From Alphaproteobacteria bacterium (GTDB lineage: Bacteria; Pseudomonadota; Alphaproteobacteria; Rs-D84; CASDRH01): a DNA stretch of 64,000 nt. Shown here piece by piece: positions 1 through 43,378 of this stretch; position 1 is the first letter of the stretch, and every line of letters starts with the position of its first letter. A program made the position numbers and the translations under genes. The DNA is taken from contig JAOASE010000011.1 in the NCBI GenBank assembly GCA_025210155.1, positions 12,498-76,497 on the forward strand, written 5' to 3'. Under the pieces are notes generated by a model that was given only the letters and a program-made list of their open reading frames with translations, had not been told where the DNA came from and searched no databases.

Positions 1-1500
1 TATGAAGAAAATGGTGATATAAATTTTTATTTAACATTGTTTGCCGATAAAAAAAATAGAAATCGTATGAATTATATAAGAAAAGAAATTAGGGCTGGAT
101 TTGATGCTAATATTTCATTAGATTTAGATGTTAGAGAAAGAATATATTCAACATATTTAAAACCATTAAGAGATGCAGAAGAAGAATTATCTTCAGGAAG
201 ATATTCTAGACTATCTCATATTTTAAATAATTTTTTAAAGGATGATTCAAAATCTACCTTAAATGAGGATATTAAAAAATTCAATAATACTATTGAAGAA
301 TCACAAAAATCTGAAAAATATTTAGAAATTATAAGATCTCATTTAGAAAATCTTATTTTTGAGAAAGAAGAAAATTTAACATCTAAAGTTTCTTTATCCC
401 AAGGTAGAGAAGAAATTTTATATAAGGGATTATTGGAAAAGTTAAATTTAGAATTTTCTAGTATGGATAAACAAGGTTTAGGTTATCAAAATGCTTTGTA
501 TATAGCTGCAGAATTGCTTTTATTAAATCAAGAAGAAGATATTTCTTCATTTTTAATTATTGAAGAACCTGAGGCTCATTTACATCCTCAGCTTCAAATG
601 AAATTTCTATCATATATAATGAAAATGTTAAATTCTGAATTTAAAAATAAAATTCAAATATTTATAACTACACATTCTCCTAATATAGCATCTAAAGTAA
701 ATCCTGGAAAAATTATTTTATCAACTCATAAAAATAATAAAATAGAAATGTATTCGTTAAGAAAAGAAGAAACTAAACTAAATGAAGAAGATTATATTTA
801 TTTGCAAAAATTTCTAGATATTACTAAATCTAATATGTTTTTTGCTAAAGGTATTTTAATGGTTGAAGGACCTAGTGAGGAAATACTGATTCCGTCAATA
901 GCTAAGGCTATAGGTTATAATTTAGAAGACTATGGCGTTGCAATTGTTAATGTTAACGGAGTTGGATTTTCTAGATTTTCAGATATTTTTATTAGATCAA
1001 ATGAAGATAGTGAAAAGATAAAAATACCTATATCTGTAGTAACGGATTTAGATTTACATAGATATTTTTGTGATGAAGATTCCAATTTAACTTCAGTAAG
1101 AGCTAAAAAGAAGCATGATGGAACTTATAAAACTTATGATTTGAAAGAGTATAGAGCAGAAAGGGAAAAATCTGAAGGAAATGTTAAAAATTTTATTTCA
1201 GCTTATAGATCTTTAGAAATTGATATATTTCACTCTTCTTTGAAGGATGAATTTTTAAAAATAGTAGAAGATTTCGATTATTCTTCTCATGATACAATGA
1301 AAGAAAGTTATAAAAATATAAAAAATAAAACAGATATTGCATATTTCTTATCAAAACAATTAGAGTCTAAAATAGATGCTTGTTTAAAATGTAAAGAATG
1401 TGATATTTCAGCTTTAAATTCTTGTATGTTGTCTGGTTTACCTAAATATATTACGGAGGCTATAAAATATTCTTGTAGAAAAGATTTAAATGAAGAGTAA
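1..1500 (+). CDS. gajA: OLD-family ABC-ATPase/TOPRIM nuclease, GajA-like. The 5' end is cut by the window edge.
   Basis: Frame 1 is open from nt 1, so the TTG at 37 is not the true start. Motifs seen: Walker B/D-loop FLIIEEPEAHLHPQLQ, H-loop ITTHSP, TOPRIM Glu in MVEGPSEE, and DxD in VVTDLD. An overlapping UvrD-like helicase follows. Confidence 0.75.
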   Translation, partial: YEENGDINFYLTLFADKKNRNRMNYIRKEIRAGFDANISLDLDVRERIYSTYLKPLRDAEEELSSGRYSRLSHILNNFLKDDSKSTLNEDIKKFNNTIEESQKSEKYLEIIRSHLENLIFEKEENLTSKVSLSQGREEILYKGLLEKLNLEFSSMDKQGLGYQNALYIAAELLLLNQEEDISSFLIIEEPEAHLHPQLQMKFLSYIMKMLNSEFKNKIQIFITTHSPNIASKVNPGKIILSTHKNNKIEMYSLRKEETKLNEEDYIYLQKFLDITKSNMFFAKGILMVEGPSEEILIPSIAKAIGYNLEDYGVAIVNVNGVGFSRFSDIFIRSNEDSEKIKIPISVVTDLDLHRYFCDEDSNLTSVRAKKKHDGTYKTYDLKEYRAEREKSEGNVKNFISAYRSLEIDIFHSSLKDEFLKIVEDFDYSSHDTMKESYKNIKNKTDIAYFLSKQLESKIDACLKCKECDISALNSCMLSGLPKYITEAIKYSCRKDLNEE

Positions 1501-3496
1501 TATAATGAAAGATATTTTAGAGATTAATGAAGAACAAATTATGGGCTATTTAAGTAGATTAAATCTAGTAGCTGATGAAAAACAAATAGAATTTATAAAA
1601 AATCTTGATACATTGGATATACATGCGGTTCCTGGAGCTGGTAAAACAACTATGCTTGGAATAAAAATAGCATGCCTTTTAGATAATTGGAAAAAATTAC
1701 CTAACCAAAATCATGGTATGTGTATTCTCTCCCATACAAATACAGCAAAAGATGAAATATTAAAAATATTAAAAAAATTAGATCATATAGAGAAAATTAA
1801 AAATTTTCCTCATTTTGTTGGAACTATACAAGAATTTGTAAATAAATTTGGAGGAATACCATATATTAAATCTCAACATTGGAAGTTATCAAGAATTGTT
1901 GAAGAATCTAATTTAGAACTATTGAATAAAAATGTAATTAAATATAAAAATTTTGATATAAATGCTTTTTTTAAAGAAGTACATAACAAAAAATCTAAAA
2001 AGAAATTAAATAAAAATATATATCCAATATCATATTTTTTAGAAACATTTAATAGAAAGGGGAAAATAAAAGAGTCTGATTTTTGTTATACATTTAATAA
2101 TGGAAAATTAACTCTTTTAAAATTTGAGGAAATATTTTCTCATATAGATGATTTGTATAATTATAAAAATGAATGCTGTAAAAGAGGTTTATTTTATTAT
2201 AAAGATTTTTATGCTTTCTTTAATGAAATTATTTATAATCATCCTAATTTAGTAAGAGCTATATCCTTAAGATTTCCAATTTGTTTTATTGATGAATATC
2301 AAGATAATACTAAAACTCAAGATGAATTATTAGAAAAACTATTTTCCAAACATTCTATATTTCAACGAATTGGGGATCCAAATCAATCAATATATGATAT
2401 TGAAAATGATAATGAAGAAAATTCTTTTAATCAAAATTCTCGTCATTATTTAGCTGGAGGGCTTCTTCCAAATTTAGACATGTTATCTTCTTATCGTTTT
2501 AAAGGTTCAAATATAGAAAATTTACTTCAAATATTTTCAAAAAATAATATTGAAAGCAATGCTGTAGGTGTAATGGGAAAAGATACTGTTATTAAAATAA
2601 TACCTATTAATATATCCTATGAAAAGCAAAACGATAGAGCGGATAACTATGGAAATGAATTAATAGATATTAAAAATAAATATATTAAAATAATTAAAGA
2701 AACCTTTTCAGATAAAGTTCAAGATTTTAATTTTGATAAAGATGGTCAAATAAAATATTTTTCTATTGGAGCATCAGGTAAAGATAAAGATAAAATTCAT
2801 ATACAAAAATATTTGGATACTTATGATAAAAAGAAATCAGAAAAAAATTTTCGTCCTAAGTATTGGATAGATTGTTTTTATTTAATTGAGAAAAAAATAA
2901 AAGAAAAAAATGATTTCAAAGAATATTATGATCTTATAATAGATACGTTAGCTAAAAATTCTTTGTTGGAGAATATTAAAACAACATCTCAATTAAAGAA
3001 TTTTTTAAAATCAGAAGATAAATTGTTTAAATTTAATAAAATTTTATTTGAATTAATTAGTCTTGAAAAAAGTGAAAAATTATGGAAAGAAAAATTAAAT
3101 ATAATTAAAGATTTTATTAATATAGATATTAATAAAGAGTATTTTAAATTTAAAGATTCAGATATTGATGATAATGATCATATAAATAATATTTATGAAG
3201 AAGATAATATTAAAATTAAGTTTGATACAATTCATGGAATTAAAGGACAAACTCATAATGCTACATTAGTTTTAACGACTGAAAATGATGGATTTGATAT
3301 AGAGAAAATTATTGAAAAAAGAAATTATAAAAATGATGATAAAAAGTTTGGGAAAAATAATTTTAAAAGAATAAAAAATTGGTATGTAGCGGCTTCTCGT
3401 CCTAAATATTTATTGTGTTTAGCAATACCTAAATCAGTTATAGAAAATAAAAACTTTCCAGAAAATTGGAAAAATTTTATATATGAGGAAAATTAA
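1490..3496 (+). CDS. gajB: UvrD/PcrA-like SF1 helicase, GajB-like
   Basis: Motifs seen: Walker A AVPGAGKTT, motif II CFIDEYQD, and late motif IHGIKGQTHNATLV. ATG 1490 overlaps the gajA TAA (1498-1500). An alternative ATG lies at 1505. Confidence 0.75.
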   Translation: MKSNIMKDILEINEEQIMGYLSRLNLVADEKQIEFIKNLDTLDIHAVPGAGKTTMLGIKIACLLDNWKKLPNQNHGMCILSHTNTAKDEILKILKKLDHIEKIKNFPHFVGTIQEFVNKFGGIPYIKSQHWKLSRIVEESNLELLNKNVIKYKNFDINAFFKEVHNKKSKKKLNKNIYPISYFLETFNRKGKIKESDFCYTFNNGKLTLLKFEEIFSHIDDLYNYKNECCKRGLFYYKDFYAFFNEIIYNHPNLVRAISLRFPICFIDEYQDNTKTQDELLEKLFSKHSIFQRIGDPNQSIYDIENDNEENSFNQNSRHYLAGGLLPNLDMLSSYRFKGSNIENLLQIFSKNNIESNAVGVMGKDTVIKIIPINISYEKQNDRADNYGNELIDIKNKYIKIIKETFSDKVQDFNFDKDGQIKYFSIGASGKDKDKIHIQKYLDTYDKKKSEKNFRPKYWIDCFYLIEKKIKEKNDFKEYYDLIIDTLAKNSLLENIKTTSQLKNFLKSEDKLFKFNKILFELISLEKSEKLWKEKLNIIKDFINIDINKEYFKFKDSDIDDNDHINNIYEEDNIKIKFDTIHGIKGQTHNATLVLTTENDGFDIEKIIEKRNYKNDDKKFGKNNFKRIKNWYVAASRPKYLLCLAIPKSVIENKNFPENWKNFIYEEN

Positions 3497-3497
3497 T

Positions 3498-3938
3498 ATG
3501 ATAAATAATAAATATTTAAATGATATTTTAAGTGAATTGCCTCTTAATTTAAAAACTAATATAGATGGATATATGAGATCCATAGAAAATAGTTTAGATG
3601 AAATCTTTCTACCATTCATTAATAATTCAAAAAAAAATATAAATAAAGAAATTGTTGATAAATTTTTATTTTTAATATTACTTAGAAAAATAAAAGCAAC
3701 TATAAAGACTCAAATTTTAATTTTAAGTAATAGCTTATCTATATCTAATAAAGATATAAAAAATAATTTTGGCTTTCAAACAGGAAAAAAGATCTATAGT
3801 AAATCATCTAAGGAATTTAAAGAGTTATCTAAATTAGAAATGGAATTTGACTCTTTAATTTTAAAGTTAGATTTAAATCATTATATTTATTCGTCTTCAC
3901 CTTCCAACCTTTTAGAAATACTTTATGAGGAATTATAA
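3498..3938 (+). CDS. Hypothetical helical protein (146 aa), coupled to the helicase
   Basis: ATG 3498 lies 1 nt after the helicase TAA and downstream of GAGGA. The track start at 3483 would overlap the helicase. No motif was recognised. Confidence 0.5.
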   Translation: MINNKYLNDILSELPLNLKTNIDGYMRSIENSLDEIFLPFINNSKKNINKEIVDKFLFLILLRKIKATIKTQILILSNSLSISNKDIKNNFGFQTGKKIYSKSSKEFKELSKLEMEFDSLILKLDLNHYIYSSSPSNLLEILYEEL

Positions 3939-3939
3939 C

Positions 3940-4665
3940 ATGGATTTAAATAAAATAACTAAAGAATTAAAAAAATTTATAAGAAAGCATAAATCTAAAT
4001 TTGAAGAAATTCCTAAAAGAGAAACTGCTATATTAGAAATAGGTGCTTTAGCTACAACCGCAGAATATTATAAAAATAATGGATATTTAGTATCTACAAA
4101 AAATTTAAAAAATGGTAATTTTAAAGTCAAAATGGGAGCAAGAGGTAATCCTTATAATTTTTCTTGGTTTACATGTGAAAAAGATAATATTAAATTTGAA
4201 ATTCATTCTAATTTATCAGTTTATGATGGATATAATGAAAATGGAGTTTATGTTGTTGACGTTGGAATTTGTAATTCAAAAAAAGTAGAAGAGCTTTCTT
4301 CTTTGGATAAAGGTGTTATTAAAGCAATAAAAAATAAAGATTTAATAACATTTATAGAGGTTAAAAAATTAGTAGTTTATCCTATGTTATTAGCTCAGTT
4401 TGTTGGTATAGTTCATGAACTACAACCATTTTTCTTAAAGGGAAAACTGCCAGATAATTTTGAGAAAAAAAAGCATTTCTACCCAACTTTAATAGCAACT
4501 CAATATCTTAGTGGGACAACGAGTAAAATAATAGATGATTTTAAAAAAAGAAATTATAAAATTAGTATTATATGGAATTTTGAAAATAGAATTTTTGATT
4601 TAAATCTAACAGGAAGAAATTTATTTTCTAATGAAAGGTCGGATCTAGAAATTGATATTTCTTAA
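3940..4665 (+). CDS. Putative PD-(D/E)xK nuclease-fold protein (241 aa)
   Basis: ATG 3940 lies 1 nt after the upstream TAA, with a GAGGA RBS (track start 3925). The order E (ILEIGA), D (YVVDVGI), ExK (FIEVKK) fits a restriction-endonuclease-like core. Confidence 0.45.
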   Translation: MDLNKITKELKKFIRKHKSKFEEIPKRETAILEIGALATTAEYYKNNGYLVSTKNLKNGNFKVKMGARGNPYNFSWFTCEKDNIKFEIHSNLSVYDGYNENGVYVVDVGICNSKKVEELSSLDKGVIKAIKNKDLITFIEVKKLVVYPMLLAQFVGIVHELQPFFLKGKLPDNFEKKKHFYPTLIATQYLSGTTSKIIDDFKKRNYKISIIWNFENRIFDLNLTGRNLFSNERSDLEIDIS

Positions 4666-5118
4666 ATTATAAAAAATTTTTTTAACAACTTTAGCATATT
4701 TATTAAAATTTCTATGAAGGTCAGTTATTTCTTTGAACTGACCTTCTGAATTAATTATATAAATAGTTTGTCGTCTAAGGAGAATATCTAATTCATTTAT
4801 AATCTTAGTTTTACCTTGTTTATCTGAAGGTTTATTTTTATTTAAGATATAGTAAGTGGATTTTAATTTATACTTAGTTCTCACTAAGCTCTCAATGTTT
4901 TTTAAACTATCTTCAGTTTTGATTAAAGATATTGATGTATTCTCAAGTTTTCTCGTTAATTTTAAGAATACATCATTTTCTATCTTTAACCAAGTTGAAG
5001 CAATATTTTTAGAAATCAATTTTTTCTCGGAAGGGGACAAGTCTTTTAACCTTAAATCGTTAATATTCTTTTTCCAATCTAAACTATCTCTACCTAAAAA
5101 CAATCTTATTATCCCCAT
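4645..5118 (-). CDS. Hypothetical protein (157 aa)
   Basis: Long ORF whose start overlaps the stop of the upstream membrane-protein gene (5109-5118), so the two form a two-gene operon. No motif was recognised. Confidence 0.5.
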   Translation of the reverse strand: MGIIRLFLGRDSLDWKKNINDLRLKDLSPSEKKLISKNIASTWLKIENDVFLKLTRKLENTSISLIKTEDSLKNIESLVRTKYKLKSTYYILNKNKPSDKQGKTKIINELDILLRRQTIYIINSEGQFKEITDLHRNFNKYAKVVKKIFYNLRNINF

Positions 5119-5453
5119 CTTCTATTAATAATCCATAAAATTATAAGTGCCGACAATAATATCACTATAGGACTAATTACTACAAAAAATATTACTTTAA
5201 ATATATTAAATTTATTTCTATAATCAATAGCATCTTCTGCTTTAATAGCTGAATAAAAACCAAATAAAAGATATAAAATTATTTCATAAAAAGCAAAGTT
5301 TACATATCCTTCAATCTGCAAAATAAATCCTATTACTGACAGTAAAGTAAATAAACATAACATAGTATTTGCTATAAACAATTCTCCATAACCTGAAAAA
5401 TACATAGGTTGAAATATAAATGCCTTTAAGTTAAATTTTTTTATATTGTCCAT
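5109..5453 (-). CDS. Small three-TM membrane protein (114 aa)
   Basis: ATG 5453 is preceded by AAAGGAG. The track start at 5486 is a GTG inside the leader terminator hairpin. Three hydrophobic helices are present. The N-terminus FNLKAFIFQPMYF loosely resembles DUF2628-type proteins. Confidence 0.6.
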   Translation of the reverse strand: MDNIKKFNLKAFIFQPMYFSGYGELFIANTMLCLFTLLSVIGFILQIEGYVNFAFYEIILYLLFGFYSAIKAEDAIDYRNKFNIFKVIFFVVISPIVILLSALIILWIINRRWG

Positions 5454-5472
5454 AATTTTACTCCTTTTATAT

Positions 5473-5503
5473 AAAAAAAAATCCACGAGTAAAATACTAG
5501 TGG
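5473..5503 (-). terminator. Intrinsic terminator/attenuator at the 3' end of leader RNA copy A
   Basis: The minus strand reads CCACTAGTattttACTCGTGG followed by a run of 9 T, then AAAGGAG and the ATG of 5109..5453. Confidence 0.55.
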
Positions 5504-5672
5504 ACTGGGAGTTCGTAACTGAAATACAACAGTGCGGGCTTTTAGCTTACGCCTGGACATAACCCTGCCTCCCAGTCCCTAAGAACAAAGAAGGCAGTTT
5601 TTTGATTTCGGTCTTCATCTTTTCAGACACTGCTCATGACCGTGTATTTAGAGGTTACGACACCCCAATCGA
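5473..5672 (-). ncRNA. Unclassified structured leader RNA, copy A (paralog of 45502..45696)
   Basis: Blocks shared with copy B (minus strand): TCGATTGGGGT, TCGTARCCTCT, GACCGAAATCAAAAA, CTGCCTT, GACTGGGAGG, ATGTCCAGG, GCACTGT, CAGTTACGAACTCCCAGTC. Helices with compensatory changes are present. A TATAAT (5675-5680) lies just upstream. Confidence 0.55.
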
Positions 5673-5826
5673 GTATTATACTCAATCTGAATAAATTATA
5701 ATATATTTTCAAAACAAATTCAAATAAAAAGTATATTTAAGAAGGTTTTCTTAAATGCATTAAACTCTTGCAATTACTATTCTTAGTTGATACAACATAT
5801 TTATAAAAAATTGGGAAAGATATAAA

Positions 5827-6753
5827 ATGAAAGAACCTATGCATATAAAAGATGAACCTATAACTTCATCAGAAAATGATTTACTAAATTATAAAAGGTA
5901 TTTAAAACCTTTAAAAAAAGCTATTTTAAAGTATTCTGAAGCTGGTGGTGGTTTTTTACAAATAGATGGAAAGTGGGGAATAGGAAAATCATCAGTAAAA
6001 AAACTATTTATTGATGACATTGAAAATAAAAAAATATCTAAAAATTATAATATATTAGATATCGATGCATCTAAATACGGAAATTCTAAAGAATTAAATT
6101 TAGGGATTTTAAAAAAAATTATATATAAAAATAAAAAAAGTTCCTATATCTTTACATTAAATTTAATTTATCTTTTCACATTATCAATACTCATAAAAAT
6201 CTTTCTTTTCCCTTCATCTGCATATAAAACAACATGTAATTTTTTAAATATAATTTTTAACGGACAGCTGTGTTTTAACAGTATTTATTTCAATATTATT
6301 TATATTACATCTCTTATAATTTTAATATACTTTACTAGTATTAAAAGTTTTAAATTAACTACCTTAACAGCACTATATTATAATTCAAAATCCCCATATA
6401 AAATTTTCGAAGGATTTATCAAAATATCACCTTCAGATTTAATAGATGAAACTAAAAAAAATATAATTTTTATAGATGATGTTGATAGAATTACAAATCA
6501 CAAATATTTAATGGATTTATTTAAAGTTTGTAGAGAAAATTTTAATAAGAACTTCATTATAATATATTTATTTGATACTCAAAAAATGACAGAATTATTA
6601 TCTTATAAAGAAAATGAGAAATATTCACAAGATTTCTTTGAAAAATATATAAATTATAAATTATATATAAAAATGGAGCATAAGGATAAATATAATTTAA
6701 TAACAACTTTAGTAAAAAATAATAATCTTAATTTGACAAAAAGAGGAAGTTAA
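5827..6753 (+). CDS. KAP-family P-loop NTPase, N-terminal part (Walker A, TM insert, Walker B)
   Basis: Motifs seen: Walker A DGKWGIGKSS, two to three hydrophobic helices inserted in the NTPase domain (the KAP hallmark), and Walker B IIFIDDVDR. The ORF ends 1 nt before the next ORF, which is in another frame. Confidence 0.6.
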   Translation: MKEPMHIKDEPITSSENDLLNYKRYLKPLKKAILKYSEAGGGFLQIDGKWGIGKSSVKKLFIDDIENKKISKNYNILDIDASKYGNSKELNLGILKKIIYKNKKSSYIFTLNLIYLFTLSILIKIFLFPSSAYKTTCNFLNIIFNGQLCFNSIYFNIIYITSLIILIYFTSIKSFKLTTLTALYYNSKSPYKIFEGFIKISPSDLIDETKKNIIFIDDVDRITNHKYLMDLFKVCRENFNKNFIIIYLFDTQKMTELLSYKENEKYSQDFFEKYINYKLYIKMEHKDKYNLITTLVKNNNLNLTKRGS

Positions 6754-6754
6754 C

Positions 6755-8356
6755 ATGACTAATAAAAATGAAGATGTTCTTAAAGATATTTTACTAGCCT
6801 TTGTTAAAGACAATCCAAGAGATATAAAAAACATAATAAACAACATTGAAATAAATTTAGAATTAATTCCTTTTCATTTATACTACAATGAAGAAATAAA
6901 CTATCAAAATATATTTTTATCTGAAATCCTTCATTACTATAATCCAGAAATATATAATTTAATATTTATTGGTGATAATGGAGATGAATTTTTTAAATTA
7001 CTTAATGAACTATATGATATAGTAATTTCAAAATCTAAGAGATTTCTTTTATTAATAAGGGGAAAAGATAAAAAAAATATAATAACAGATCATAAAAAAA
7101 ATCCAATAATAGAAACTAGTATTTCTAATTTAGAAAAAATTCAAAATATACTTAAAAAACAAAATATATTTATAAGCTCTGATAATGGAATAGATTTTAC
7201 AATTGAAACCAATAATAATTTAAAATTATTAGAACTAATAAATAAAATTTATAGAAGTGAATTAATAAATTCTTTTTCAACTTATCATTTAATAAAAAAT
7301 ATTAATAGTGAAAACTATGTAACAAGTTTAATGTTTCATGATATAAAATATAAAAATAAAATTGAAAATTTTATAAAAATAAATACATATAGATTATATG
7401 AAGAATTTATTGAAAAATTTTTAGTTTTCAATCTACTTTTTGATAAAAAATATAATAAAAATTACTTAAAAAAATATTCTCAGCTTATAATTAATAATTT
7501 AAAGAATTATAAAAGTGAAAATTTCGAAGAATTTAATTTGATAGATAAATTTATTTATAAAATTAGCACCATACCTTTTCATATATCTAATAAAATTATA
7601 GAAAAGAAAAAGCTACAATCAGAAGGTCACCTAAGAGAATATATTTTTAATAAATTTAAAAATAAAAAAGAATTTTTTGAAATAATAGAAAATTTAAGAG
7701 AAGTTTTTAAAGACAAAGATTATGAATATTTAAAATATAAATTTTCTGGACAGAAAATTAAAGATTTCAACTCGAATCAAAGTACAATTTCTAAAAAAAT
7801 ATTAAATAAATCATTTAAAATAATGGAAGTTGATTCCTCTATAGATTTAATACAAATGAATTTATATTTATTAACATCATTTCTTAAAGAGCCAATAAAA
7901 ATAAATATTTATAGAGCTTCTTTATTAAGAGAAGATTTTTTCAAGGAAAATAATGAAACTTTAATCTCTTCTATAAAAAATAAATTAGCTAAATTTTATA
8001 ATGATGATTCAAAATCAGATAAAACATTAATTAAACTAAATAAAAATGCTCCAAAATGGCTACGCCTATTCAATTCTACCATAACTGAATTTTATAAAGT
8101 CACAAACTTAGAAAAAATTAAAGATATTAAAAATTATTTTAATCAATTATTAAATCATCCTCTAAACAAAAAAACATATTTAAGCGAAGAAGATTTAACT
8201 ATTAAATTAAAAACTTATCAAGAAATGATGAATGATAAATTTCACTTAAAAGAAATATCTAGAGTATCAATAGGTGAATATGCTGAACTTTGGATTAAAT
8301 ACTTAGATATAATAAATAAATTTTATATAGAAGTAGAAGAAACTCCTATAGTTTAA
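6755..8356 (+). CDS. KAP-family NTPase, C-terminal continuation (533 aa)
   Basis: It begins with DNPRDIKNIINNI, matching the conserved NPRxIKR motif that follows Walker B in KAP NTPases. A long helical tail follows. Confidence 0.5.
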   Translation: MTNKNEDVLKDILLAFVKDNPRDIKNIINNIEINLELIPFHLYYNEEINYQNIFLSEILHYYNPEIYNLIFIGDNGDEFFKLLNELYDIVISKSKRFLLLIRGKDKKNIITDHKKNPIIETSISNLEKIQNILKKQNIFISSDNGIDFTIETNNNLKLLELINKIYRSELINSFSTYHLIKNINSENYVTSLMFHDIKYKNKIENFIKINTYRLYEEFIEKFLVFNLLFDKKYNKNYLKKYSQLIINNLKNYKSENFEEFNLIDKFIYKISTIPFHISNKIIEKKKLQSEGHLREYIFNKFKNKKEFFEIIENLREVFKDKDYEYLKYKFSGQKIKDFNSNQSTISKKILNKSFKIMEVDSSIDLIQMNLYLLTSFLKEPIKINIYRASLLREDFFKENNETLISSIKNKLAKFYNDDSKSDKTLIKLNKNAPKWLRLFNSTITEFYKVTNLEKIKDIKNYFNQLLNHPLNKKTYLSEEDLTIKLKTYQEMMNDKFHLKEISRVSIGEYAELWIKYLDIINKFYIEVEETPIV

Positions 8357-9008: not shown

Positions 9009-10154
9009 TTATATATTAAAACAACTCACTGTATTTAATATATCATCTTTAATATCACTATTACTCAAATGAGCATATTTCAAAGTCATAGAAATAGTCT
9101 TATGACCTAATGCCTTTTGAACTTTAGATAAAGGAATATCATTCTTAACTAAATAAGTAGCAAAGGTATGTCTTAAATCATGCATTCTAAAACCACTAAT
9201 ACCAGCGTCATCCATAAGTATTCCCCAAGACCTTTTAGGATCTGTGATATATCCATTATACCATCTATTATAAAATAGATACTTACAAGGCTTTTTACAA
9301 GAAGCCTGATATTCTCTTATCAATTCCATAATTTCATTTGATATAGGAACTGTTATACCTTCTCCATTCTTAGTATCTTCAATAAATATATTACCCTTTT
9401 CAAAGTCAATATTTTCATTTAATATACTTAATATATTAGTCTTTCTTAAACCTGTATTTAAAGCTATTAAAGTAAATAACTTAATATAATGTCCATTATA
9501 CTTCTCACTATTTAAAACTCTTTTTAAAGATGCTAACTCTGCATCACTTAAATATCTTGTTATTCCCTTAACTGGATATTTAGATATCCCTTTAACATAA
9601 TTTTCGCTCATCAAATTATTCTCTATCAAAACATTAAATACCTTACTTAATAAAGAAATTATATGATTAAAAACACTCTTAGTCTTTCTAACATTATCCA
9701 AAACTCTTAATACTAAATCCTTATCAATTTTATCCGCCTTCTTCTTTCCCATAAAAGGTCTTACATATGCATTATAAAGTTGCTTGTCATGTTCACAACT
9801 TTTCTTATTAGGTTTTGCATGTTTCTCATAATAAAAATTAAATAAATCATCAAATCTCATTACAACCTTATTACCCAAATCATTTCTTTTATATTTTCCA
9901 TTTAATATATCTGCTAAAATCTTAGCAGAATCATCTTTAGCCTGACTTATAGAGATATAAGGGTAATGCCCTATGTCTTTTCTATAATCAATTCCTTTAA
10001 ATCTTTTATCTACAAAGAATAATACATCTCTCTTTCCAATTCTAACATAAAGACTAGAAGCATTAGAACATGAGTAAGTCACATTCTTTCCACTTTCTTT
10101 AACTTTATTAATTACCTTTTCTAAATTACTTTTATTCAACACAATTGAAGCCAT
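9009..10154 (-). CDS. int: Tyrosine recombinase, P4-like integrase
   Basis: C-terminal catalytic signatures HDLRHTFATYL and LGHKTISMTLKYAH are present. ATG 10154 (MASIVL) follows AAAGGAG. The track start at 10187 is less likely. Confidence 0.85.
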   Translation of the reverse strand: MASIVLNKSNLEKVINKVKESGKNVTYSCSNASSLYVRIGKRDVLFFVDKRFKGIDYRKDIGHYPYISISQAKDDSAKILADILNGKYKRNDLGNKVVMRFDDLFNFYYEKHAKPNKKSCEHDKQLYNAYVRPFMGKKKADKIDKDLVLRVLDNVRKTKSVFNHIISLLSKVFNVLIENNLMSENYVKGISKYPVKGITRYLSDAELASLKRVLNSEKYNGHYIKLFTLIALNTGLRKTNILSILNENIDFEKGNIFIEDTKNGEGITVPISNEIMELIREYQASCKKPCKYLFYNRWYNGYITDPKRSWGILMDDAGISGFRMHDLRHTFATYLVKNDIPLSKVQKALGHKTISMTLKYAHLSNSDIKDDILNTVSCFNI

Positions 10155-10459
10155 TTCTAATTCTCCTTTAATACTTAAATTCATCACATATGCGACATTA
10201 AAAGTATTTATAAAAAATTAGTTTTAGTTCGTAATCTCACCACATAAAAGGCATATAATAAAGAAGTCATTACATAAGTAATAACTTTTAAGAAACTTTT
10301 AAGAATTATTGTTATATTTATATAGATTTATATATACTCATATATACTTTAGATAAAAATACAGAAAACAAAACAATCTTAAAAACACAATAAAATCAAA
10401 GATTTACAAAAGTTCAAGGTTAGAGACTAACTCTCATCAATATTTTCTTTTAATCAATC

Positions 10460-10491: not shown

Positions 10492-10597
10492 TTTAATTTC
10501 CTAGAGAAAACAAAGAGTTAGACAGTTTCCGAAAGGAAGCTTTTTTTGTATCAAATTTCAACTTTTAAAGATTTTTTAAAACTAGTGAAAATATTTT

Positions 10598-10655
10598 AAA
10601 TTTTATTACCAATTCACTTAACTATAGAAACTTCCTCTTAAAAACTCCAATAAAT
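10598..10655. repeat. 58-bp direct repeat, copy 1 (partner at 13235..13292)
   Basis: The sequence AAATTTTATTAcCAATTCACTTAACTATAGAAACTTCC..TTAAAA.CT.CAATAAAT is nearly identical to copy 2. Confidence 0.85.
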
Positions 10656-10714
10656 AAGAAAATTAACAATATATTCCTAAAGATGCTAAAAATATGCTAT
10701 ACTCCTGAACCTTC

Positions 10715-13025: not shown

Positions 13026-13234
13026 CAAAATCATTTATAATTTAAATTATTAAATGATCAAAATATTATTGATTTAAAACATAAAAAAGTCAAAGAAAAT
13101 ATTTTTCAATTATTTTGTAAAGTTTAGTAGACTAACCAGATTTCCCTTGATAAACTTCAATTCCACCGATGCAAAACATAAATAAAACAACTAGTAAAAG
13201 AGAGAAAATAATGGAAAATTATAAAAAGCTATTC

Positions 13235-13292
13235 AAATTTTATTATCAATTCACTTAACTATAGAAACTTCCCTTTAAAACTTCCAATAAAT
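13235..13292. repeat. 58-bp direct repeat, copy 2
   Basis: See 10598..10655. This copy overlaps the 3' end of an unlisted 45-aa minus-strand ORF (13255..13392). Confidence 0.85.
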
Positions 13293-13482
13293 TATAATTT
13301 TCATCAATCTTATCATAAATTTCTTGAAGATTTTCATAATCTGCTTTTATAAAAACATCTTCCTCAAACAAAATATTTCTATCTACATTCATTACACTTC
13401 TATTTGATATGTCTAGTAAAAACCACTATGAATATTTTCAAAAACTTAAAACTTATTTGATTTATTAATTTTTTCCACAACA

Positions 13483-16400
13483 TTATCCAACTATATTCAT
13501 ACCAATAAGCATACTTTGTTTTACAACATTATCTATTGCTAATTTTTCCATATTAGGTGGATAACCAAACTCTTTCAAAAGCTTCTTAACTTCCACCCTT
13601 AATCTAGCTTGAACATCACTTCTTTCTAAGAAATTAAAGTTAACCCTTCTCTTACATCTAAATACAAGAGCTTTTGTTAATTCCTTAAGCTTATTATCAC
13701 CCATAACTTCAACTGCAGACTTATTATCTGCTAGTGCTGTATAAAACTGTATTTCTTCGTCTGTTAAACCCAGTTCTTTCTTTTTTTCATCAGATAAAGC
13801 AATATGCTTACTCAAATTAATAAGCTCTTCTATCATCTGAGTAGAATCTATTTGATTATTATGATATCTAGAAACAAGCTCCTTCAACATCTCACCAAAA
13901 TTTCTAGCTTCAATGACACTATGTCTAGCTCTTTCTTTTACATCATCACTAATAAGTTTCTTCAGCATCTCTAAAGCTAAGTTTTTATTATTAAACTTCT
14001 TTATCTCATTTAAAAAGTCTTCTGAAAAGATATCTATCTGATTTTTGTTAATACTAGCCAAATCAAGAAGATCAAATATCTTAACCCCCTCAACTGCTTG
14101 AGAAGCAAGATTTCCTATCTTCGTGTTAATATCCTCAAGCTTCAGCTTTCTTTCGTTACAAATATTGGTATTTTTCAAAATCAACTCTTTAACTGCACAG
14201 AAAAATACTAACTCATACCTAATACTTTCAGCTTTATCAGTAGTAGCACACAAACTATAAGACTTTTGAAAATCAGTAGTCCATTTAACAAACTGCTTAC
14301 TCTTTTCCTTATCATCCGAACCAACAATAAAATTAAACAAGTCCTTTTTCAACTTAAAAAGTATCTTGCTATCATTGTTCTTATAAGCCCTTAACAACTC
14401 ATCCTTATAATCAAATCCAAACAATAAATCAGAAATATTAGAATACTTAGCCATCATAGTATCAACAGCCTTCTCTCTAATATTTTCACCTACAACTCCT
14501 TTATCTCTAGGAGAATATATAGCCAATGCATCTTTAAGATTTCCAAGAATACCAATATAATCTACAATCAAGCCATCTGGTTTTTCTTTATAAACCCTAT
14601 TAGCCCTAGCAATAGCCTGAATAAGATTATGTTCTTTTATAAGCTTATCAAAATACATTGTATTAATTGGAGGAGCATCAAATCCTGTCAACCACATATC
14701 ACAAACTATGATAAAGTCTAATTCATCATTCTCATCTTCAAGTCTCTTAGCAATCACCTCTTTATCTGCAGAAGATGTTTTATATTTCAGCAAATCTTCA
14801 CTATCAGAAGCCGATGAAGAATAAACCATCTTTATTTTACCCTTATCAACATCATCACTATGCCATTCTGGATTTTGAGAAACTAACATTTCATATAGTT
14901 TAACAGCAACATTTCTAGTAGAACAAACAATCATCGCCTTAGAAAACGGCAAAACCTCTTTTCTTAATCCAAAATGCTTACTAATGTCCTTCGCTAACAA
15001 CTTCAATCTTTCAGGACTTCCTAAAATAGCTTCCAACTTAGCATTCTTACTTTTTAAACTCTCACTATAACTTAAATCAGTAATGCCTTCTATCTCATCA
15101 AATAACTTATTTATTTCAGATATCTTATCATCATTCAACTTCACCTGAGCTAAACGAGCCTCATATCTAATTGGAACCGTAGCTCCATCAATTACAGACT
15201 GAGCCATATCATAAACATCATTATCATCACCAAAAATAGCTCTAGTATCATTATTCCCTTTCTCTATTGGAGTTCCTGTAAACCCAATAAATGTAGCATT
15301 AGGAAAAGCATCTCTTAAATATCTTGCAGAACCATCATCTATACCATTATGAGATCTATGAGCCTCATCAACCATAACAATAATATTATCTCTTTCTGAA
15401 AGTGTTTTAAACACCAACTCTGATCTACCCTTCTTATCAATACCAAACTTTTGCAATGTAGAAAAATAAACACCACCTGCTTTAATACCCTCAAGCTTAG
15501 TCTTCAACTCACCTGAACTTTGAATATTAACAGGCTTAGAACCTAAAATCATCTCTCCAGAACTAAATGTCTTAAACAATTGGGAATCCAAAGCAACTCT
15601 ATCAGTAACAACAAGTATCGTAGGATTTTCCAATTTCAAATCCTTCTCAATCATCCCAGCTAAAAACATCATAGAAAAAGACTTCCCTGAACCTGTAGAA
15701 TGCCAAACCAAACCACCTCGTTTATCACCATCTACAGCCTTTTTAATAGCTTCTAACGAACTATTAACACATCTCACCTGATGATACCCTGCGCAGATTT
15801 TAACATCCTTACCTTTAGAATTTATAAACGTCACAAAATTCTTAATATAATGTAACAATTTCTTCTTATCAAATAAATCCCTAATCAATCCTTCAATTTC
15901 AAATTCAAGTTTATCATCATCTTCACTTCTCCATGGATTAAATCTATCATAACCCGCAGACAAAGAACCTACCCTACTATGAAATCCATCTGAAATAATA
16001 TTAAACTGGTTAAAATAAAAAGCTTGAGGAAACTCCCTCTTATAAGTTTCCAACTGATTAAAAGCATTCTTCAAAGTAGCATTCTTATCAGCTGGATTTT
16101 TAAACTCAATCATAGAAATAGGCAAACCATTTAAATAAATCATAACATCAGGTCTTCTATGCTTATTATGCTCTTTTAAAATTAACTGATTAGAAACTAC
16201 AAATGAATTATTCTCAACATTTTCAAAATCCACTAACCTAACAGTCAAAGTTCTATCTTTATGATTTATCTTAACCCCACCAGTTAATAACTGGAAAATC
16301 CTCTTATTCTCTTGAACAAGATTAGTATGCTTACTTCTTATAACCTCATTAATAGCTTCTTCAATAACTTCACTAGACAAATCAGAATTTATTTTAAAAA

Positions 16401-16587
16401 CAACATCTCTAAAAATAGATAGATAATATGCAATATCAAAATCACTTCTCAAACAACTTCCATTTTCATCTAAAGGATTAATCTCTTCTCCTGATAAATA
16501 TTGGTATCCCTTATCTTGAAAAATACCAATAGCATAATCCTCTACCATCTGCTCATTAAACGGATTTTTAAAATTATCTTTTTGCAT
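13483..16587 (-). CDS. hsdR: Type I restriction enzyme R subunit
   Basis: Motifs seen: Walker A HSTGSGKS, the DEAH box VMVDEAHRS, and helicase motif QAIARANR. The protein is 1034 aa. Confidence 0.9.
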   Translation of the reverse strand: MQKDNFKNPFNEQMVEDYAIGIFQDKGYQYLSGEEINPLDENGSCLRSDFDIAYYLSIFRDVVFKINSDLSSEVIEEAINEVIRSKHTNLVQENKRIFQLLTGGVKINHKDRTLTVRLVDFENVENNSFVVSNQLILKEHNKHRRPDVMIYLNGLPISMIEFKNPADKNATLKNAFNQLETYKREFPQAFYFNQFNIISDGFHSRVGSLSAGYDRFNPWRSEDDDKLEFEIEGLIRDLFDKKKLLHYIKNFVTFINSKGKDVKICAGYHQVRCVNSSLEAIKKAVDGDKRGGLVWHSTGSGKSFSMMFLAGMIEKDLKLENPTILVVTDRVALDSQLFKTFSSGEMILGSKPVNIQSSGELKTKLEGIKAGGVYFSTLQKFGIDKKGRSELVFKTLSERDNIIVMVDEAHRSHNGIDDGSARYLRDAFPNATFIGFTGTPIEKGNNDTRAIFGDDNDVYDMAQSVIDGATVPIRYEARLAQVKLNDDKISEINKLFDEIEGITDLSYSESLKSKNAKLEAILGSPERLKLLAKDISKHFGLRKEVLPFSKAMIVCSTRNVAVKLYEMLVSQNPEWHSDDVDKGKIKMVYSSSASDSEDLLKYKTSSADKEVIAKRLEDENDELDFIIVCDMWLTGFDAPPINTMYFDKLIKEHNLIQAIARANRVYKEKPDGLIVDYIGILGNLKDALAIYSPRDKGVVGENIREKAVDTMMAKYSNISDLLFGFDYKDELLRAYKNNDSKILFKLKKDLFNFIVGSDDKEKSKQFVKWTTDFQKSYSLCATTDKAESIRYELVFFCAVKELILKNTNICNERKLKLEDINTKIGNLASQAVEGVKIFDLLDLASINKNQIDIFSEDFLNEIKKFNNKNLALEMLKKLISDDVKERARHSVIEARNFGEMLKELVSRYHNNQIDSTQMIEELINLSKHIALSDEKKKELGLTDEEIQFYTALADNKSAVEVMGDNKLKELTKALVFRCKRRVNFNFLERSDVQARLRVEVKKLLKEFGYPPNMEKLAIDNVVKQSMLIGMNIVG

Positions 16588-17380: not shown

Positions 17381-18619
17381 CTACATTCCTTTTAGTTTTA
17401 CTTTACCACTTATTAGTTTTGGTAAAAGTGTATCTCTAGTTTCTTTAAGAGTTGCTATTTGCTTAATATTAGCAGAAATCTTTTCAAACATAGGTTCAAC
17501 CTTTTCATTAAACCTTTTCATACTCCCCTCATCAGGTATTAAAATTTTAGAATTTTTTATTTCAAAAGTTGATAAATTAACTTGAACACCACTATTTGAG
17601 CGCCCCCTCAAATTTTCTATAAATTCTGACGTATTAGTTAATATACTTAAAAAATAATTATAACCATTTTTAGGTCTAATAATTCCAACACGTTGATTTA
17701 CTAAATATTTTTTATCTTCAAACATAATACCTGTATGTCCTAGTAAGTTCATTGAAGATTTCATATCTGTCATACACATTAATATATCATATTTTTCAGC
17801 AAAATTACTCGAAATTTTATTAGAAACATCTCCAGCAAAATAAGAAACAAATTTTTCTAAAGTTAAACCACCACCCTTTAAAATATTTCCCATTTTTAAA
17901 ACTGGTATTCCAACTTTATCCTTAGATAGTTCTTTACTAGAAAATGGATAACCATTTTTAAAATCTGACACATCATCCAACACTCCTTCTTTCCAATCTG
18001 AATTTGGGTTAGTAATGAAGGTTTCAGTGAAGATAGTTTGAGCTAATTCTTCTAGAGTTTTATTTTGCTCTTGCAACAATTCAATCTTATCATCTAGCGA
18101 TGACAAAACCCCTGCAATCTCCCTCTGGATCTCCACATCCTCAGGGATAAAAGTAGAAAACTGTAATATACGAGAAGGACTAGTATGCTTCACTGTACTA
18201 CCTGTAGCTCCATTAGCAATATATCGCTGATAAAAAGAAGTTCTCATTAACCAATAAAGAAATTCTTTATCAATTTTTTCACAATTAAGATTTTCCACCA
18301 AACCAAGTCTTTGATTATGTAAATAAACAAACTCATTACTATTAGGAACTTTTAAAGGATACCCCAATGTATCAGCCTTTTTACTTAGATCTGTCATCGA
18401 AACAAGTAAATCACCTTCTTTTAAAATATAAGACTTAGGAAAATCATCAGAAGAATAATACTTAAATTTTTTAGAATTAAACCCTCCACCTATAGAAAAA
18501 TTACCAGGAGTTAAAAGTATATTTTTAAACTTTTCTGAAGTAATAAAGTCTCCTTTAAAAGCATAACCATGCTTTATATCACAAACATCACCTAGTGTTG
18601 TCTCAATCCACTTAATCAT
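17381..18619 (-). CDS. hsdS: Type I R-M specificity subunit
   Basis: Two target-recognition halves are separated by the conserved helix LDDKIELLQEQNKTLEELAQTIF. The C-terminal helix reads LKETRDTLLPKLISGKV. Confidence 0.9.
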   Translation of the reverse strand: MIKWIETTLGDVCDIKHGYAFKGDFITSEKFKNILLTPGNFSIGGGFNSKKFKYYSSDDFPKSYILKEGDLLVSMTDLSKKADTLGYPLKVPNSNEFVYLHNQRLGLVENLNCEKIDKEFLYWLMRTSFYQRYIANGATGSTVKHTSPSRILQFSTFIPEDVEIQREIAGVLSSLDDKIELLQEQNKTLEELAQTIFTETFITNPNSDWKEGVLDDVSDFKNGYPFSSKELSKDKVGIPVLKMGNILKGGGLTLEKFVSYFAGDVSNKISSNFAEKYDILMCMTDMKSSMNLLGHTGIMFEDKKYLVNQRVGIIRPKNGYNYFLSILTNTSEFIENLRGRSNSGVQVNLSTFEIKNSKILIPDEGSMKRFNEKVEPMFEKISANIKQIATLKETRDTLLPKLISGKVKLKGM

Positions 18620-19750: not shown

Positions 19751-21343
19751 CTACACCTCAACCTTACTCATTTGTTTTAAAATCTCTTCATTCAAATCAG
19801 TTTCTTTTTTAATCTGAACTTTCAACTCACTTAAAAGTCGTGGAAACTTCTCTTCAAAAGGTTCTGAGTCCTCTTCACTCTCAGCAATACCTACATATCT
19901 ACCTGGAGTCAAAACCCAATCATTCTTTTCAATTTCTTCTAAACTAGCAGACTTACAAAAACCAGCAATGTCTTTATAATCATCTTTAACCAAAACATGT
20001 CCTTTTACCCTTGTTGTTTTAGCATCATAAAAAAGACCTGAACCTGTAGACAATCCTGCACTAACAGATTTAGATTTCCACTTATCATAAGTAGTAGAAA
20101 TATTAGCTATATCCTCATCAGTAAATTCTTTATGAACTCTATCAGCCATAAACCCAATTTCTCTAGCATCTATAAACAAAGTCTTTTTCTTCTCTTCAGC
20201 ACTTCTACCTTTTCTCAAAATCCATAAACAAGCTGGAATTTGAGTAGAGAAAAACATCTGCCCAGGCAAAGCAACTATAGCTTCAACAACCCCATCTTTA
20301 ATCATATTCTTTCTAACTTCCAATTCACCATTAGTAGCCGTAGACATTGAACCATTTGCAAGAACTACACCTGCCACTCCATTGTGATTAAGGTGATGTA
20401 TCATATGTTGCAACCAAGCATAATTAGCATTTCCTTTAGGAGGTAAACCATAAGACCATCTAACATCATTCGCCAATATATCATGCCCCCACTCACTTTG
20501 ATTAAATGGTGGATTAGCCAAAATATAATCCGCTTTTAAAGTCTTATGTAAATCATTCCTAAGAGTGTCATCCGAACTCTCTCCAATATTTCCATTAATC
20601 CCTCTAATAGCCAAATTCATCAAACAAAGTCTTCTTGTAGACTCATTATACTCTTGACCATGTATCCAAATATCTTGAACTCTATGACCATGAGCAACAG
20701 TAAATTTCTCAGATTGAATAAACATCCCACCAGAACCACAACAAGGGTCATAAACCTTTCCCTTGTAAGGCTTAATAATTTCCACAAGTGTTTTAACTAT
20801 TGATTTGGGTGTATAAAACTCCCCACCTCTTTTACCTTCCGTAGAAGCAAAATTAGAAATAAAATATTCATAAACCCTTCCAAGCACATCTTTTTCTTCA
20901 TTCAAATCTCCAAAAGAAATATTATTGGTAAAAAGATCTATCAAACCACCCAAGTTATTTTTATTCAACGAGGCTCTATTATAATTTTTAGGAAGAACTC
21001 CTTTCAAATTAGAATTCTCTTTTTCTATAGCAATCATAGCATTGTCTATTATCTCACCAATGTCATCTGACTTAGCATATTTAGATATATAACTCCAACG
21101 AGCAATCTCAGGACAAAAGAAAATACCATCTGCTAAATATTCATCTCTATCTTCTTCTGAACCATAACCTTCTTCCACAAGAGTATTATACTTAATCTCA
21201 AATGAATCTGATATATATTTCAAAAATATAAGCCCTAAAACAACATACTTATACTCAGATGGATCAATAGCTCCTCTTAACTTATCAGCTCCCGCAAACA
21301 ATACTTTTTCAATAGATAAATCCGATGATGAATTCTTAGCCAT
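19751..21343 (-). CDS. hsdM: Type I R-M N6-adenine DNA methyltransferase subunit
   Basis: Motif I is YDPCCGSGGMF and motif IV is ILANPPFN. Confidence 0.9.
   Translation of the reverse strand: MAKNSSSDLSIEKVLFAGADKLRGAIDPSEYKYVVLGLIFLKYISDSFEIKYNTLVEEGYGSEEDRDEYLADGIFFCPEIARWSYISKYAKSDDIGEIIDNAMIAIEKENSNLKGVLPKNYNRASLNKNNLGGLIDLFTNNISFGDLNEEKDVLGRVYEYFISNFASTEGKRGGEFYTPKSIVKTLVEIIKPYKGKVYDPCCGSGGMFIQSEKFTVAHGHRVQDIWIHGQEYNESTRRLCLMNLAIRGINGNIGESSDDTLRNDLHKTLKADYILANPPFNQSEWGHDILANDVRWSYGLPPKGNANYAWLQHMIHHLNHNGVAGVVLANGSMSTATNGELEVRKNMIKDGVVEAIVALPGQMFFSTQIPACLWILRKGRSAEEKKKTLFIDAREIGFMADRVHKEFTDEDIANISTTYDKWKSKSVSAGLSTGSGLFYDAKTTRVKGHVLVKDDYKDIAGFCKSASLEEIEKNDWVLTPGRYVGIAESEEDSEPFEEKFPRLLSELKVQIKKETDLNEEILKQMSKVEV

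Positions 21344-43322: not shown

Positions 43323-43378
<56 letters not shown>

Follow-up and report, generated by a model that had tools for sequence, protein, structure and literature searches.

An uncatalogued family of leader RNAs with two covariation-supported folds in alphaproteobacteria

A 64,000-nt stretch of DNA from an Alphaproteobacteria bacterium (assembly GCA_025210155.1, contig JAOASE010000011.1, positions 12,498 to 76,497; hereafter the window) carries two copies, A and B, of a structured RNA on its minus strand. Both copies are genuine members of an uncatalogued family of ~225-nt leader RNAs; the family comprises ~35 or more loci. Comparison across it supports two mutually exclusive folds: Fold N, which contains a four-way junction, and Fold X, which is closed by a 9-bp stem within the 3′ domain. 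The nearest known relative of the family is sRNA-Xcc1, a small RNA (sRNA); the 5′ half, the two covariation-supported folds and the association with envelope genes are new features. We propose, with moderate confidence, that the element is a bistable cis-regulatory on/off leader which controls the next gene downstream and is transcribed from a sigma-70-type promoter of its own. The family adds to the known structured RNAs one with two covariation-backed folds that lies outside Rfam 15 and comes from little-studied, mostly uncultured alphaproteobacteria.

Window copies and their relatives

A covariance model of the two window copies, R1, scores their minus strands at 186.8 bits (copy A, core 5503..5667) and 190.3 bits (copy B, core 45526..45691) and their reverse complements at 6-10 bits. 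Exactly two copies are present, with no third copy in the 64-kb window when R1 is run with filters off. Aligned with MAFFT, 5440..5720(-) and 45470..45750(-) agree in 81% of columns, as long identical blocks separated by variable segments, and the homology runs without interruption from the 5′ hairpin P0 through the Shine-Dalgarno (SD) sequence to the ATG, where it ends. The 19-mer CAGTTACGAACTCCCAGTC has its sole sites at 5503..5521 and 45526..45544, both on the minus strand, even with 3 mismatches permitted, and shuffled sequences give 0 matches. For the pair of copies RNAalifold predicts 54 pairs, 12 of them compensatory with both sides changed; these comprise GGC/GCC in copy A against GGU/ACC in copy B, plus 6/7 pairs of helix P1b. 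In a window of ~27% GC, the folding z-scores are -3.3 (copy A) and -4.8 (copy B), each copy folding better than all 200 of its own dinucleotide shuffles. The original prediction, which placed a two-copy, covarying, minus-strand RNA at 5473..5672, is borne out on all three counts by these results and by the family-wide covariation and frequent G-U pairs described below.

Relatives were recovered by pattern scans and then by R1. An exact scan of GTDB species genomes for the 19-mer gave 0 matches; two degenerate patterns returned mainly chance matches in high-GC genomes, and the first pattern included the first true relatives, L027 and L081. R1 retrieves full-length relatives at 24-75 bits, and R2, a second model built on the 3′ domain, finds nine further loci, not used in building it, at 74-93 bits. 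The covariance model of the two copies that the original prediction had proposed finds two copies in the window; together with the pattern scans and R2, the loci number ~35 or more. They lie in alphaproteobacterial metagenome-assembled genomes (MAGs), in metagenomes and on one viral contig: Rickettsiales MAGs (L027, L169, L198, L175), Micavibrio MAGs (L081, L199, L192), other alphaproteobacterial MAGs (L184, L185, L203, L190, L201, L182, L188), ~20 JGI metagenome contigs and one IMG/VR viral contig (L208). Two copies on one contig recur at L131 and at L128 and L137. Copy A has no match by blastn in the plasmid and phage collections. The malic enzyme encoded in the window lacks a close relative among GTDB species genomes, its best matches, at 55-62% identity, being from Rickettsiales and assorted others. 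A Fusobacterium host, considered on account of the 27% GC, was rejected, and the relatives of the RNA suggest a divergent, probably host-associated alphaproteobacterium.

A subfamily (L158, L163, L165, L201, L208, L182, L145, L149, L154, L177, L205) has a conserved insertion of ~90 nt in P2, comprising GUCCGAAAACAGG and a second GC-rich hairpin. It occurs on higher-GC alphaproteobacterial contigs, and a U-tract after hairpin P5 is mostly absent from it.

At the Rfam 15 gathering level, the window matches tRNA only, and the loci of 17 relatives match only tRNAs. Both copies give nothing relevant at E <= 10, and there is no covariance-model match to other Rfam 15 families (T-box, GEMM, ydaO, tmRNA, 6S, hairpin ribozyme). 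ARAGORN calls only a tRNA-Ser in the window and nothing at the element in the loci of relatives, and literature searches for an earlier description of this RNA family found none. The original prediction that the element matches no known family therefore holds for Rfam 15 families at threshold; it does not hold below threshold, where the 3′ domain resembles sRNA-Xcc1.

Two exclusive folds and the nearest known RNA

From 5′ to 3′, family members consist of a sigma-70-like promoter, P0, UGGGG, P1a, an asymmetric internal loop containing CCUC, P1b, a four-way junction, the 3′ strands of P1b and P1a, segment X'' (CUCCCAGUC) and hairpin P5. The four-way junction is made of P2, an A-rich linker, P3, the invariant AUGUCCAG and P4. 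P1a has an invariant AA/UU adjoining the internal loop, P2 is variable with insertions to ~90 nt, P3 pairs the pyrimidine-rich X' with X (GRCUGGGAGG), and the loop of P4 is UAAAG. The AGUC of X'' is the start of P5, and its CUCCC completes P1. Together these pairings form Fold N, and an alignment of 31 sequences supports them strongly: 91.7% of cells are standard pairs, versus 33-46% with the partners slid, both sides change in 36/48 pairs, P1b covaries in 7/7 pairs, and the observed values are reached by 0/500 shuffles. G-U pairs are common throughout the family. As a separate observation, the P5 stem RCCAG...CUGGUG is conserved in 27/32 members (e.g. L132 710..735), which is unusual for a plain terminator, and CCAG also recurs in AUGUCCAG and in CUCCCAG.

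A P0 hairpin ending exactly at the first base of the core is present in ~27/31 members with unrelated stem sequences, and by reading, sigma-70-like hexamers lie equally far upstream of P0 in most relatives. The conservation of P0 across the family indicates that the RNA begins ~20 nt 5′ of position 5672. The location originally predicted for the element is right and its 5′ end is not: the TATAAT beside 5672, taken at first for a promoter element, is probably the loop of P0 (5668..5686), and the called promoter lies at 5723..5695. The P0 inverted repeat was also considered as an operator overlapping the -10 element and rejected, as the family comparison identifies it as an RNA hairpin.

The strandedness of the structure bears on whether the copies are a repeat acting at the DNA level, either like a miniature inverted-repeat transposable element (MITE) or like an attC site, with P1a (AAC/GTT) as R box, P1b as L box and the downstream open reading frames (ORFs) as cassettes. 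We consider this very improbable and largely refuted. The layout does bear a superficial likeness to attC (helix, internal loop, helix, variable tip), with an invariant AAC...UU flanking the internal loop; downstream ORFans are diverse, sRNA-Xcc1 relatives occur in integron cassettes, and islands, tRNA genes and integrases are nearby. However, only the sense strand supports the structure: G-U pairs are numerous in it, and reverse complements score just 6-10 bits, while attC sites fold on the bottom strand. Of the RYYYAAC/GTTRRRY cores only AAC/UU is conserved, whereas X, AUGUCCAG and X'' are strongly conserved, unlike in attC. Cassette arrays are not found, copies being single or kilobases apart, and the nearby integrases were not compared with an IntI-specific model. 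Each copy has its own promoter and P0 and keeps one orientation and a fixed distance to the start codon. Neither terminal inverted repeats nor target duplications are apparent, and with two window copies only, strong covariation and no flanking duplications in a repeat scan, the MITE that the original prediction had named as its possible undoing is set aside.

The original prediction had also pointed to a competing 9-bp helix that uses the CUCCC tract. This helix exists as a perfect complementarity between X (GACUGGGAG) and X'' in both copies (Table 1) and proves to be part of a complete second fold, Fold X. The 9-bp pairing X:X'' is found in 30/32 members. On a structure-blind MAFFT alignment of the 3′ domains it is 99.2% paired, and both sides change in 3/9 pairs versus 0.3 in shuffles (0/500), the changed pairs being A:U, G:C, U:A; U:A to C:G; and G:C to A:U. 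By reading, the eight members with an additional C ahead of ACCA have a matching G preceding X. Stacked on this closing stem is helix Hx1, in which 7/8 pairs covary (RNAalifold on the isolated 3′ domain, structure-blind MAFFT alignment) and whose strand beside X is the one that pairs with upstream sequence in Fold N.

Two further helices complete Fold X. The segments flanking the P1b 3′ strand pair with each other as H_alt in 30/30 members tested, with at least 9 different stem sequences, among them ACUG/CAGU (both window copies), AAUCG/CGAUU, GGUCG/CGACU, GCCG/CGGU, CCAU/AUGG and GUUGU/ACAAC. The 5′ UGGGG pairs as Ha with the CCUC of the internal loop, again in 30/30 members tested, and covaries as UGGG/CCCA, UUGG/CCAA, AGGG/CCCU and CGGG/CCCG. 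Through these pairings, Fold X engages every conserved block that appears 'single-stranded' in Fold N, and the RNA can adopt only one of the two folds at a time. As judged from sequence comparison, Fold X is thus a second, covariation-supported fold that excludes Fold N.

The 3′ domain in Fold X resembles sRNA-Xcc1. Six relatives match RF02221 (sRNA-Xcc1) at 26.6-35 bits, below the gathering score of 53, with alignments that cover model positions 1-87 of 87 on the correct strand without flagged non-canonical pairs. In their register, which runs from X to 8 nt beyond X'', the closing stem of the model is X:X'' and its second hairpin is H_alt. Like the Fold X 3′ domain, sRNA-Xcc1 has a 9-bp G/C-rich closing stem (GGCYGGGRG/CYCCCRGCC) with GGCGG directly 3′ of the stem, two internal hairpins, UUU..A before the 3′ strand and ACC after it; the architecture of a 9-bp closing stem round two hairpins, then an ACC-type tail, is accordingly found in both. 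The two are also alike in being borne by mobile elements (integron cassettes, phages, plasmids and genomic islands for sRNA-Xcc1), just upstream of accessory genes. They differ in that the family has an extra 5′ half of at least ~110 nt (P0, the P1 5′ strands, P2 and X'), which can capture the Xcc1-like domain in the four-way-junction fold and has no counterpart in the sRNA-Xcc1 model, and in a further 3′ hairpin or terminator. sRNA-Xcc1 has moreover been described as a trans-acting sRNA, not as a leader. In the present family the promoters lie upstream of P0, ~125 nt ahead of X. On sequence grounds, the 3′ domain in our view is either distantly related to Xcc1 or has converged on it, short of Rfam membership.

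sRNA-Xcc1 was detected experimentally as an 88-nt RNA in Xanthomonas campestris (PMC2996969). Genes found downstream of it include symE, in the Xanthomonas integron cassette that is most widespread (bioRxiv 10.1101/2025.06.18.660453), and an ORF6N-domain gene, in APSE phages (bioRxiv 10.1101/2020.03.17.996009). Xylella has seven copies, five of them in one genomic island, and homologues there are reported to be transcribed (PMC12189769), as is an Rfam-annotated homologue in enterohaemorrhagic Escherichia coli (EHEC; PMC5331693). The EDL933 'sRNA-Xcc1' coordinates given in the latter study fall on a hok/sok locus when placed on the current assembly. Many genomes, phages, plasmids and integrons have Xcc1 annotations, and the link made here suggests that Xcc1-type RNAs may be cis switches too. 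One Xcc1-like element was noticed by eye with the Rfam consensus, at ~1447..1535 of the Kingella potus plasmid NZ_CP091517.1 (L290), where R1 and R2 are negative. It lies ~40 nt upstream of a KilA-N gene and has a GGCGGG/CCCGCC closing stem, a CCGACUUUGUACGG hairpin and an overlapping downstream hairpin.

Several other identities were considered and dropped. A hairpin ribozyme, suggested by a resemblance in ACCAG/CUGGU and A-GUC, has no Rfam match. A tRNA-like RNase P substrate, for which X:X'' followed by RCCA (27/32 members) had been taken as a sign, is not supported by ARAGORN, and the RCCA is accounted for by the conserved P5 stem. A retron or DRT noncoding RNA was dropped because no reverse transcriptase is adjacent, and a bridge RNA or omega RNA because no recombinase or nuclease is adjacent.

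A proposed switch for the downstream gene

An ORF with an SD sequence, very often GGGAG, begins 42-61 nt past the core in ~24/32 loci. P5 and its U-run form an intrinsic terminator in both window copies and in ~40% of relatives, and without AGUC the mean energy of P5 falls in strength from -13.5 to -7.7 kcal/mol. Where relatives have no U-tract, predictions pair the SD with CUCCC at probabilities of up to 1.0. Start regions are more complementary to the P1a-3′/CUCCC strand of their own leader than to that of other members (mean -11.9 versus -10.45 kcal/mol; permutation p = 1e-4), and the complementarity is extended in L139, L151, L203, L165, L081, L201, L158 and L164. Proteins encoded directly downstream carry a transmembrane (TM) segment, signal peptide or lipobox in 20/29 cases, compared with 61/227 (27%) of the other ORFs at the same loci (Fisher p = 1.3e-5). 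The genes are varied, coding for membrane proteins, lipoproteins and secreted proteins, and often belong to mobile or defence islands. Two parts of the original prediction are upheld here, namely the expression platform of hairpin, U-run, AAAGGAG and ATG (5453 in copy A, 45482 in copy B) and the position ahead of small envelope-protein genes.

These observations can be combined in a model of a bistable leader. Fold N would be the OFF state, with an intact terminator or, in relatives that have no U-tract, with the P1a-3′/CUCCC strand free to mask the SD and start codon. Fold X would be the ON state, in which the four basal base pairs of the terminator and the anti-SD-like CUCCC are sequestered, allowing read-through and translation. 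X:X'' is assigned to ON because this is the sole assignment that has the same sign in terminator-type and SD-masking members. Candidate triggers toward Fold X include a ligand or protein that binds Fold X, a factor that binds X' or the 5′ half, and processing that removes the 5′ half. Such a switch would place unrelated accessory genes, mostly for envelope proteins and many on genomic islands, under common control. The trigger, if found, would show how dozens of unrelated envelope proteins whose functions are not known, including those of defence-island and prophage genes, are co-regulated, and would also supply a portable regulatory module.

A number of points weigh against this model. By calculation, Fold X is the less stable of the two by 4-23 kcal/mol (mean 13), and transcription produces the local hairpins of Fold N before it, so that something must favour Fold X. 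If the switch is assigned to the opening and closing of P1, terminator-type and SD-masking members acquire opposite signs. A U-tract (at least 5 U in the 8-nt tail after P5) is present in only 11/29 members, and in the window copies the complementarity between start region and P1 strand is no better than that of non-cognate pairs. The downstream proteins are mutually unrelated, mostly ORFans, and share no biochemistry, unlike those of classical metabolite riboswitches; the recognised domains are only those of a PEGA lipoprotein, a TM2 protein and a RhuM/Fic protein. Across the family loci no ligand, protein partner or conserved neighbour gene was found. The likeness of relatives to sRNA-Xcc1 is below the Rfam threshold, and the window copies have no match to RF02221 even at E <= 10. 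A fold that is selected and yet ~13 kcal/mol less stable than its competitor offers a defined case for the study of RNA folding pathways.

A dedicated partner protein was dropped as a candidate, since no conserved neighbour was found. The sole recurring neighbour family is a tyrosine integrase, at five loci, and tRNA genes lie within 8/31 loci.

The features of the family that are expected of riboswitches are a covarying domain, a position in the 5′ untranslated region (UTR) at a regular distance, and exclusive structures that touch the terminator or SD. Riboswitches whose aptamer is a three-way or four-way junction (purine pbuE and add; SAM-I) resemble the family in having a covarying structured 5′ UTR domain, a closing helix whose 3′ strand is common to the sensor fold and the expression platform, and a terminator in some members with SD masking in others. 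They differ in that the genes regulated by the family have no metabolic theme in common and in that the likeness to a compact aptamer lies here with the less stable fold; none of the riboswitch families in Rfam gives a match. c-di-GMP (GEMM) riboswitches control heterogeneous, often uncharacterised surface-related and phage or mobile-genetic-element genes, with several copies per genome. The family is like them in gene set only, as the structure is unrelated and neither the GEMM-I nor the GEMM-II model matches. One possible, if doubtful, extension of our proposal is that the family element and the mobile-element-borne sRNA-Xcc1 class are riboswitch-type sensors, with Fold X as an aptamer for a cellular or host-derived signal by which the RNA leaves the OFF fold. 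If true, this would imply an RNA-specified regulon of surface and secreted ORFans in host-associated or predatory alphaproteobacteria, including cargo genes of defence islands and prophages.

That each window copy has a promoter and a strong terminator could also be attributed to a gene for a trans-acting sRNA, an extended relative of sRNA-Xcc1 that makes a ~225-nt RNA, possibly processed to ~90 nt, with the ORF expressed by read-through. We consider this unlikely. The resemblance of the 3′ domain to an RNA detected as an 88-nt sRNA (PMC2996969) and the reported transcription of Xcc1 homologues in Xylella (PMC12189769) and EHEC (PMC5331693) would agree with it, and the invariant single-stranded AUGUCCAG and the UAAAG could be seed regions. 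On the other hand, the spacing to the SD and start codon is fixed in ~24/32 loci, the homology of the two copies continues through the SD to the ATG, and start regions are complementary to their cognate leader specifically. A separate promoter for the ORF is not evident in the 40-50 nt gap, and a U-tract terminator is missing from over half of the relatives. Cis and trans roles are compatible, as a terminated riboswitch leader can also act in trans.

The energetic relation of the two folds suggests another route, in which no ligand is involved. In this hok-like explanation, the primary transcript takes up an inert Fold N until an RNase cleaves it, e.g. within the 5′ half or the AU-rich loop of P3; the released 3′ domain would then adopt Fold X, leaving an RNA with a stable 5′ stem and an exposed start site. 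We hold this to be quite unlikely. The hok mRNA of type I toxin systems has a conserved multi-step folding pathway with coupled covariations, and the family shares with it exclusive covarying helices, long-range 5′-3′ closure, some small hydrophobic products and a location on mobile DNA. A processing model would suit two exclusive folds under selection of which the later-acting is far less stable while the 5′ half is present, and a conserved U/A-rich, tetraloop-like UUAU lies in the P3 loop just 5′ of X. If sRNA-Xcc1 begins with its closing stem, which is what the Rfam model suggests, the start of that stem would coincide with the mapped 5′ end of the 88-nt RNA (PMC2996969). Xcc1 also precedes the toxin gene symE in Xanthomonas cassettes (bioRxiv 10.1101/2025.06.18.660453). 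However, the halves of a cut RNA would still be joined by ~30 bp (P1, P1a, P1b, P3), the downstream proteins are mostly lipoproteins or secreted proteins of 80-800 aa and not type I toxins, and an antisense RNA partner was not seen. The family has no sequence or model similarity to hok mRNA.

Features of the copies and their genomic setting

Coordinates of the two copies are collected in Table 1. The P5 hairpin of copy A has a predicted energy of -9.7 kcal/mol and 8 U in its 8-nt tail. It was not called by the consensus terminator scan, probably because of an interior loop in the stem and few G-C pairs. The P5 of copy B, at -10.7 kcal/mol, is positive in the same scan (9 pairs plus T-run). The putative promoter of copy B was not called by the consensus scan and overlaps the terminal hairpin of the upstream DUF2326 gene. 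The 114-aa and 157-aa proteins encoded after copy A have no Pfam match; past the lipoprotein gene of copy B, same-strand ORFs encode proteins of 154 aa, 277 aa (weak HEPN match) and 66 aa (TM).

Table 1. Predicted features of copies A and B in the window (all on the minus strand)
Copy	Feature	Position	Remarks
A	Promoter	5695..5723	TTGAAT 5718..5723, 17-nt spacer, TATAAT 5695..5700; 10/12 matches in consensus scan
A	Probable transcription start	near 5687/5688	inferred
A	P0 5′ hairpin	5668..5686	AUUGAGUA-UAA-UACUCGAU; abuts core; loop contains the TATAAT next to 5672
A	Core	5503..5667	R1 186.8 bits; fold and family covariation
A	P1/P1a	5′ strand 5654..5667; 3′ strand 5506..5519	
A	CCUC internal loop	5651..5655	
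A	P1b	5643..5649 paired with 5522..5528	
A	P2	5609..5642	
A	J2/3	5599..5608	AAAUCAAAAA
A	P3	5564..5597	
A	P4	5534..5553	
A	Invariant AUGUCCAG	5553..5560	
A	X	5569..5577	GACUGGGAG; P3 3′ strand in Fold N, closing-stem 5′ strand in Fold X
A	X''	5503..5511	CUCCCAGUC; hub: CUCCC(A) closes P1 and AGUC begins terminator stem, or 9 nt pair with X
A	H_alt	5518..5533	ACUG-UUGUAUUU-CAGU; Fold X only; loop is P1b 3′ strand
A	P5 terminator	5473..5506	hairpin AGUCCACUAG...CUCGUGGAU 5481..5506, then U9 5473..5481
A	SD	5461..5467	AAAGGAG
A	Start codon	5451..5453	ATG
A	First ORF	5109..5453	114 aa, three TM
A	Second ORF	4645..5118	157 aa
B	Putative promoter	45720..45748	TTGATT 45743..45748, 17-nt spacer, TACACT 45720..45725; read by eye
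B	P0 hairpin	45692..45711	GUCGAGUA-GUAU-UAUUCGAU
B	Core	45526..45691	R1 190.3 bits
B	P1/P1a 5′ strand	45678..45691	
B	P1b	45667..45673 paired with 45545..45551	
B	P2	45635..45666	
B	P3	45589..45623	
B	P4	45557..45578	
B	Invariant AUGUCCAG	45578..45585	
B	X	45594..45602	GACUGGGAG
B	X''	45526..45534	CUCCCAGUC
B	H_alt	45541..45556	
B	P5 terminator	45502..45529	AGUCUACUA-UUACU-UAGUAGACU 45507..45529, then UUUUU
B	SD	45490..45496	AAAGGAG
B	Start codon	45480..45482	ATG
B	First ORF, with SD	45234..45496	82-aa lipoprotein, lipobox LTAC

Copy B is located inside an 11.8-kb island between tRNA-Ser(tga) (55140..55227) and a partial copy of it (43318..43381). The direct repeat that bounds the island is the 3′ part of tRNA-Ser, 64 nt in length and 97% identical, at 43318..43381 and 55135..55198. 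Within the island (43.3-55.2 kb) are a DRT4-type reverse transcriptase (53224..54843), small phage-like regulators, a Rep-like ORF, a three-gene CTD12 / MC / DUF2326 system of the ABC-three-component / PDC-M68B-like kind (45766..48718), copy B itself and the four-gene operon downstream of it. No integrase was recognised inside the island; the 539-aa ORF beside tRNA-Ser was considered as one and rejected, as it is the DRT4-type reverse transcriptase.

On one side of copy A is a Gabija system (37..3496) and on the other a KAP/PifA-like NTPase; a tyrosine integrase is 3.3 kb away. The Gabija assignment is based on GajA (E = 9e-119), whose N-terminus is truncated at the edge of the window, and on GajB (E = 2e-108). 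After Gabija come two unassigned ORFs (3483..4665), which are convergent with the copy A operon, and the KAP-family P-loop NTPase with its PifA-like N-terminus (5827..8356) is divergent from copy A and apparently split into ORFs of 308 and 533 aa. Just past the tyrosine integrase (9009..10187) is an 83-nt direct repeat of 81% identity (10578..10660 and 13215..13297). The ~2.6 kb between its units contains three ORFs, and the repeats are possibly the att sites of a small element that has integrated here. Further along are a type I restriction-modification system (hsdR 13483..16587, an S-like ORF 17381..18619 and hsdM 19751..21343) and three tandem paralogous ORFs of ~1000 aa (28118..31102, 31239..34145 and 34294..37347; region 28108..37420). 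The paralogues have a repeat unit of ~3.1 kb with 66-92% identity, and their products may be large proteins of the surface or autotransporter-like type. In the hsdM region, 21181..21229 matches the P0 and promoter region of copy A (5671..5719) at 73%; the match starts GAGTATTATACTYAATCT and may be due to chance.

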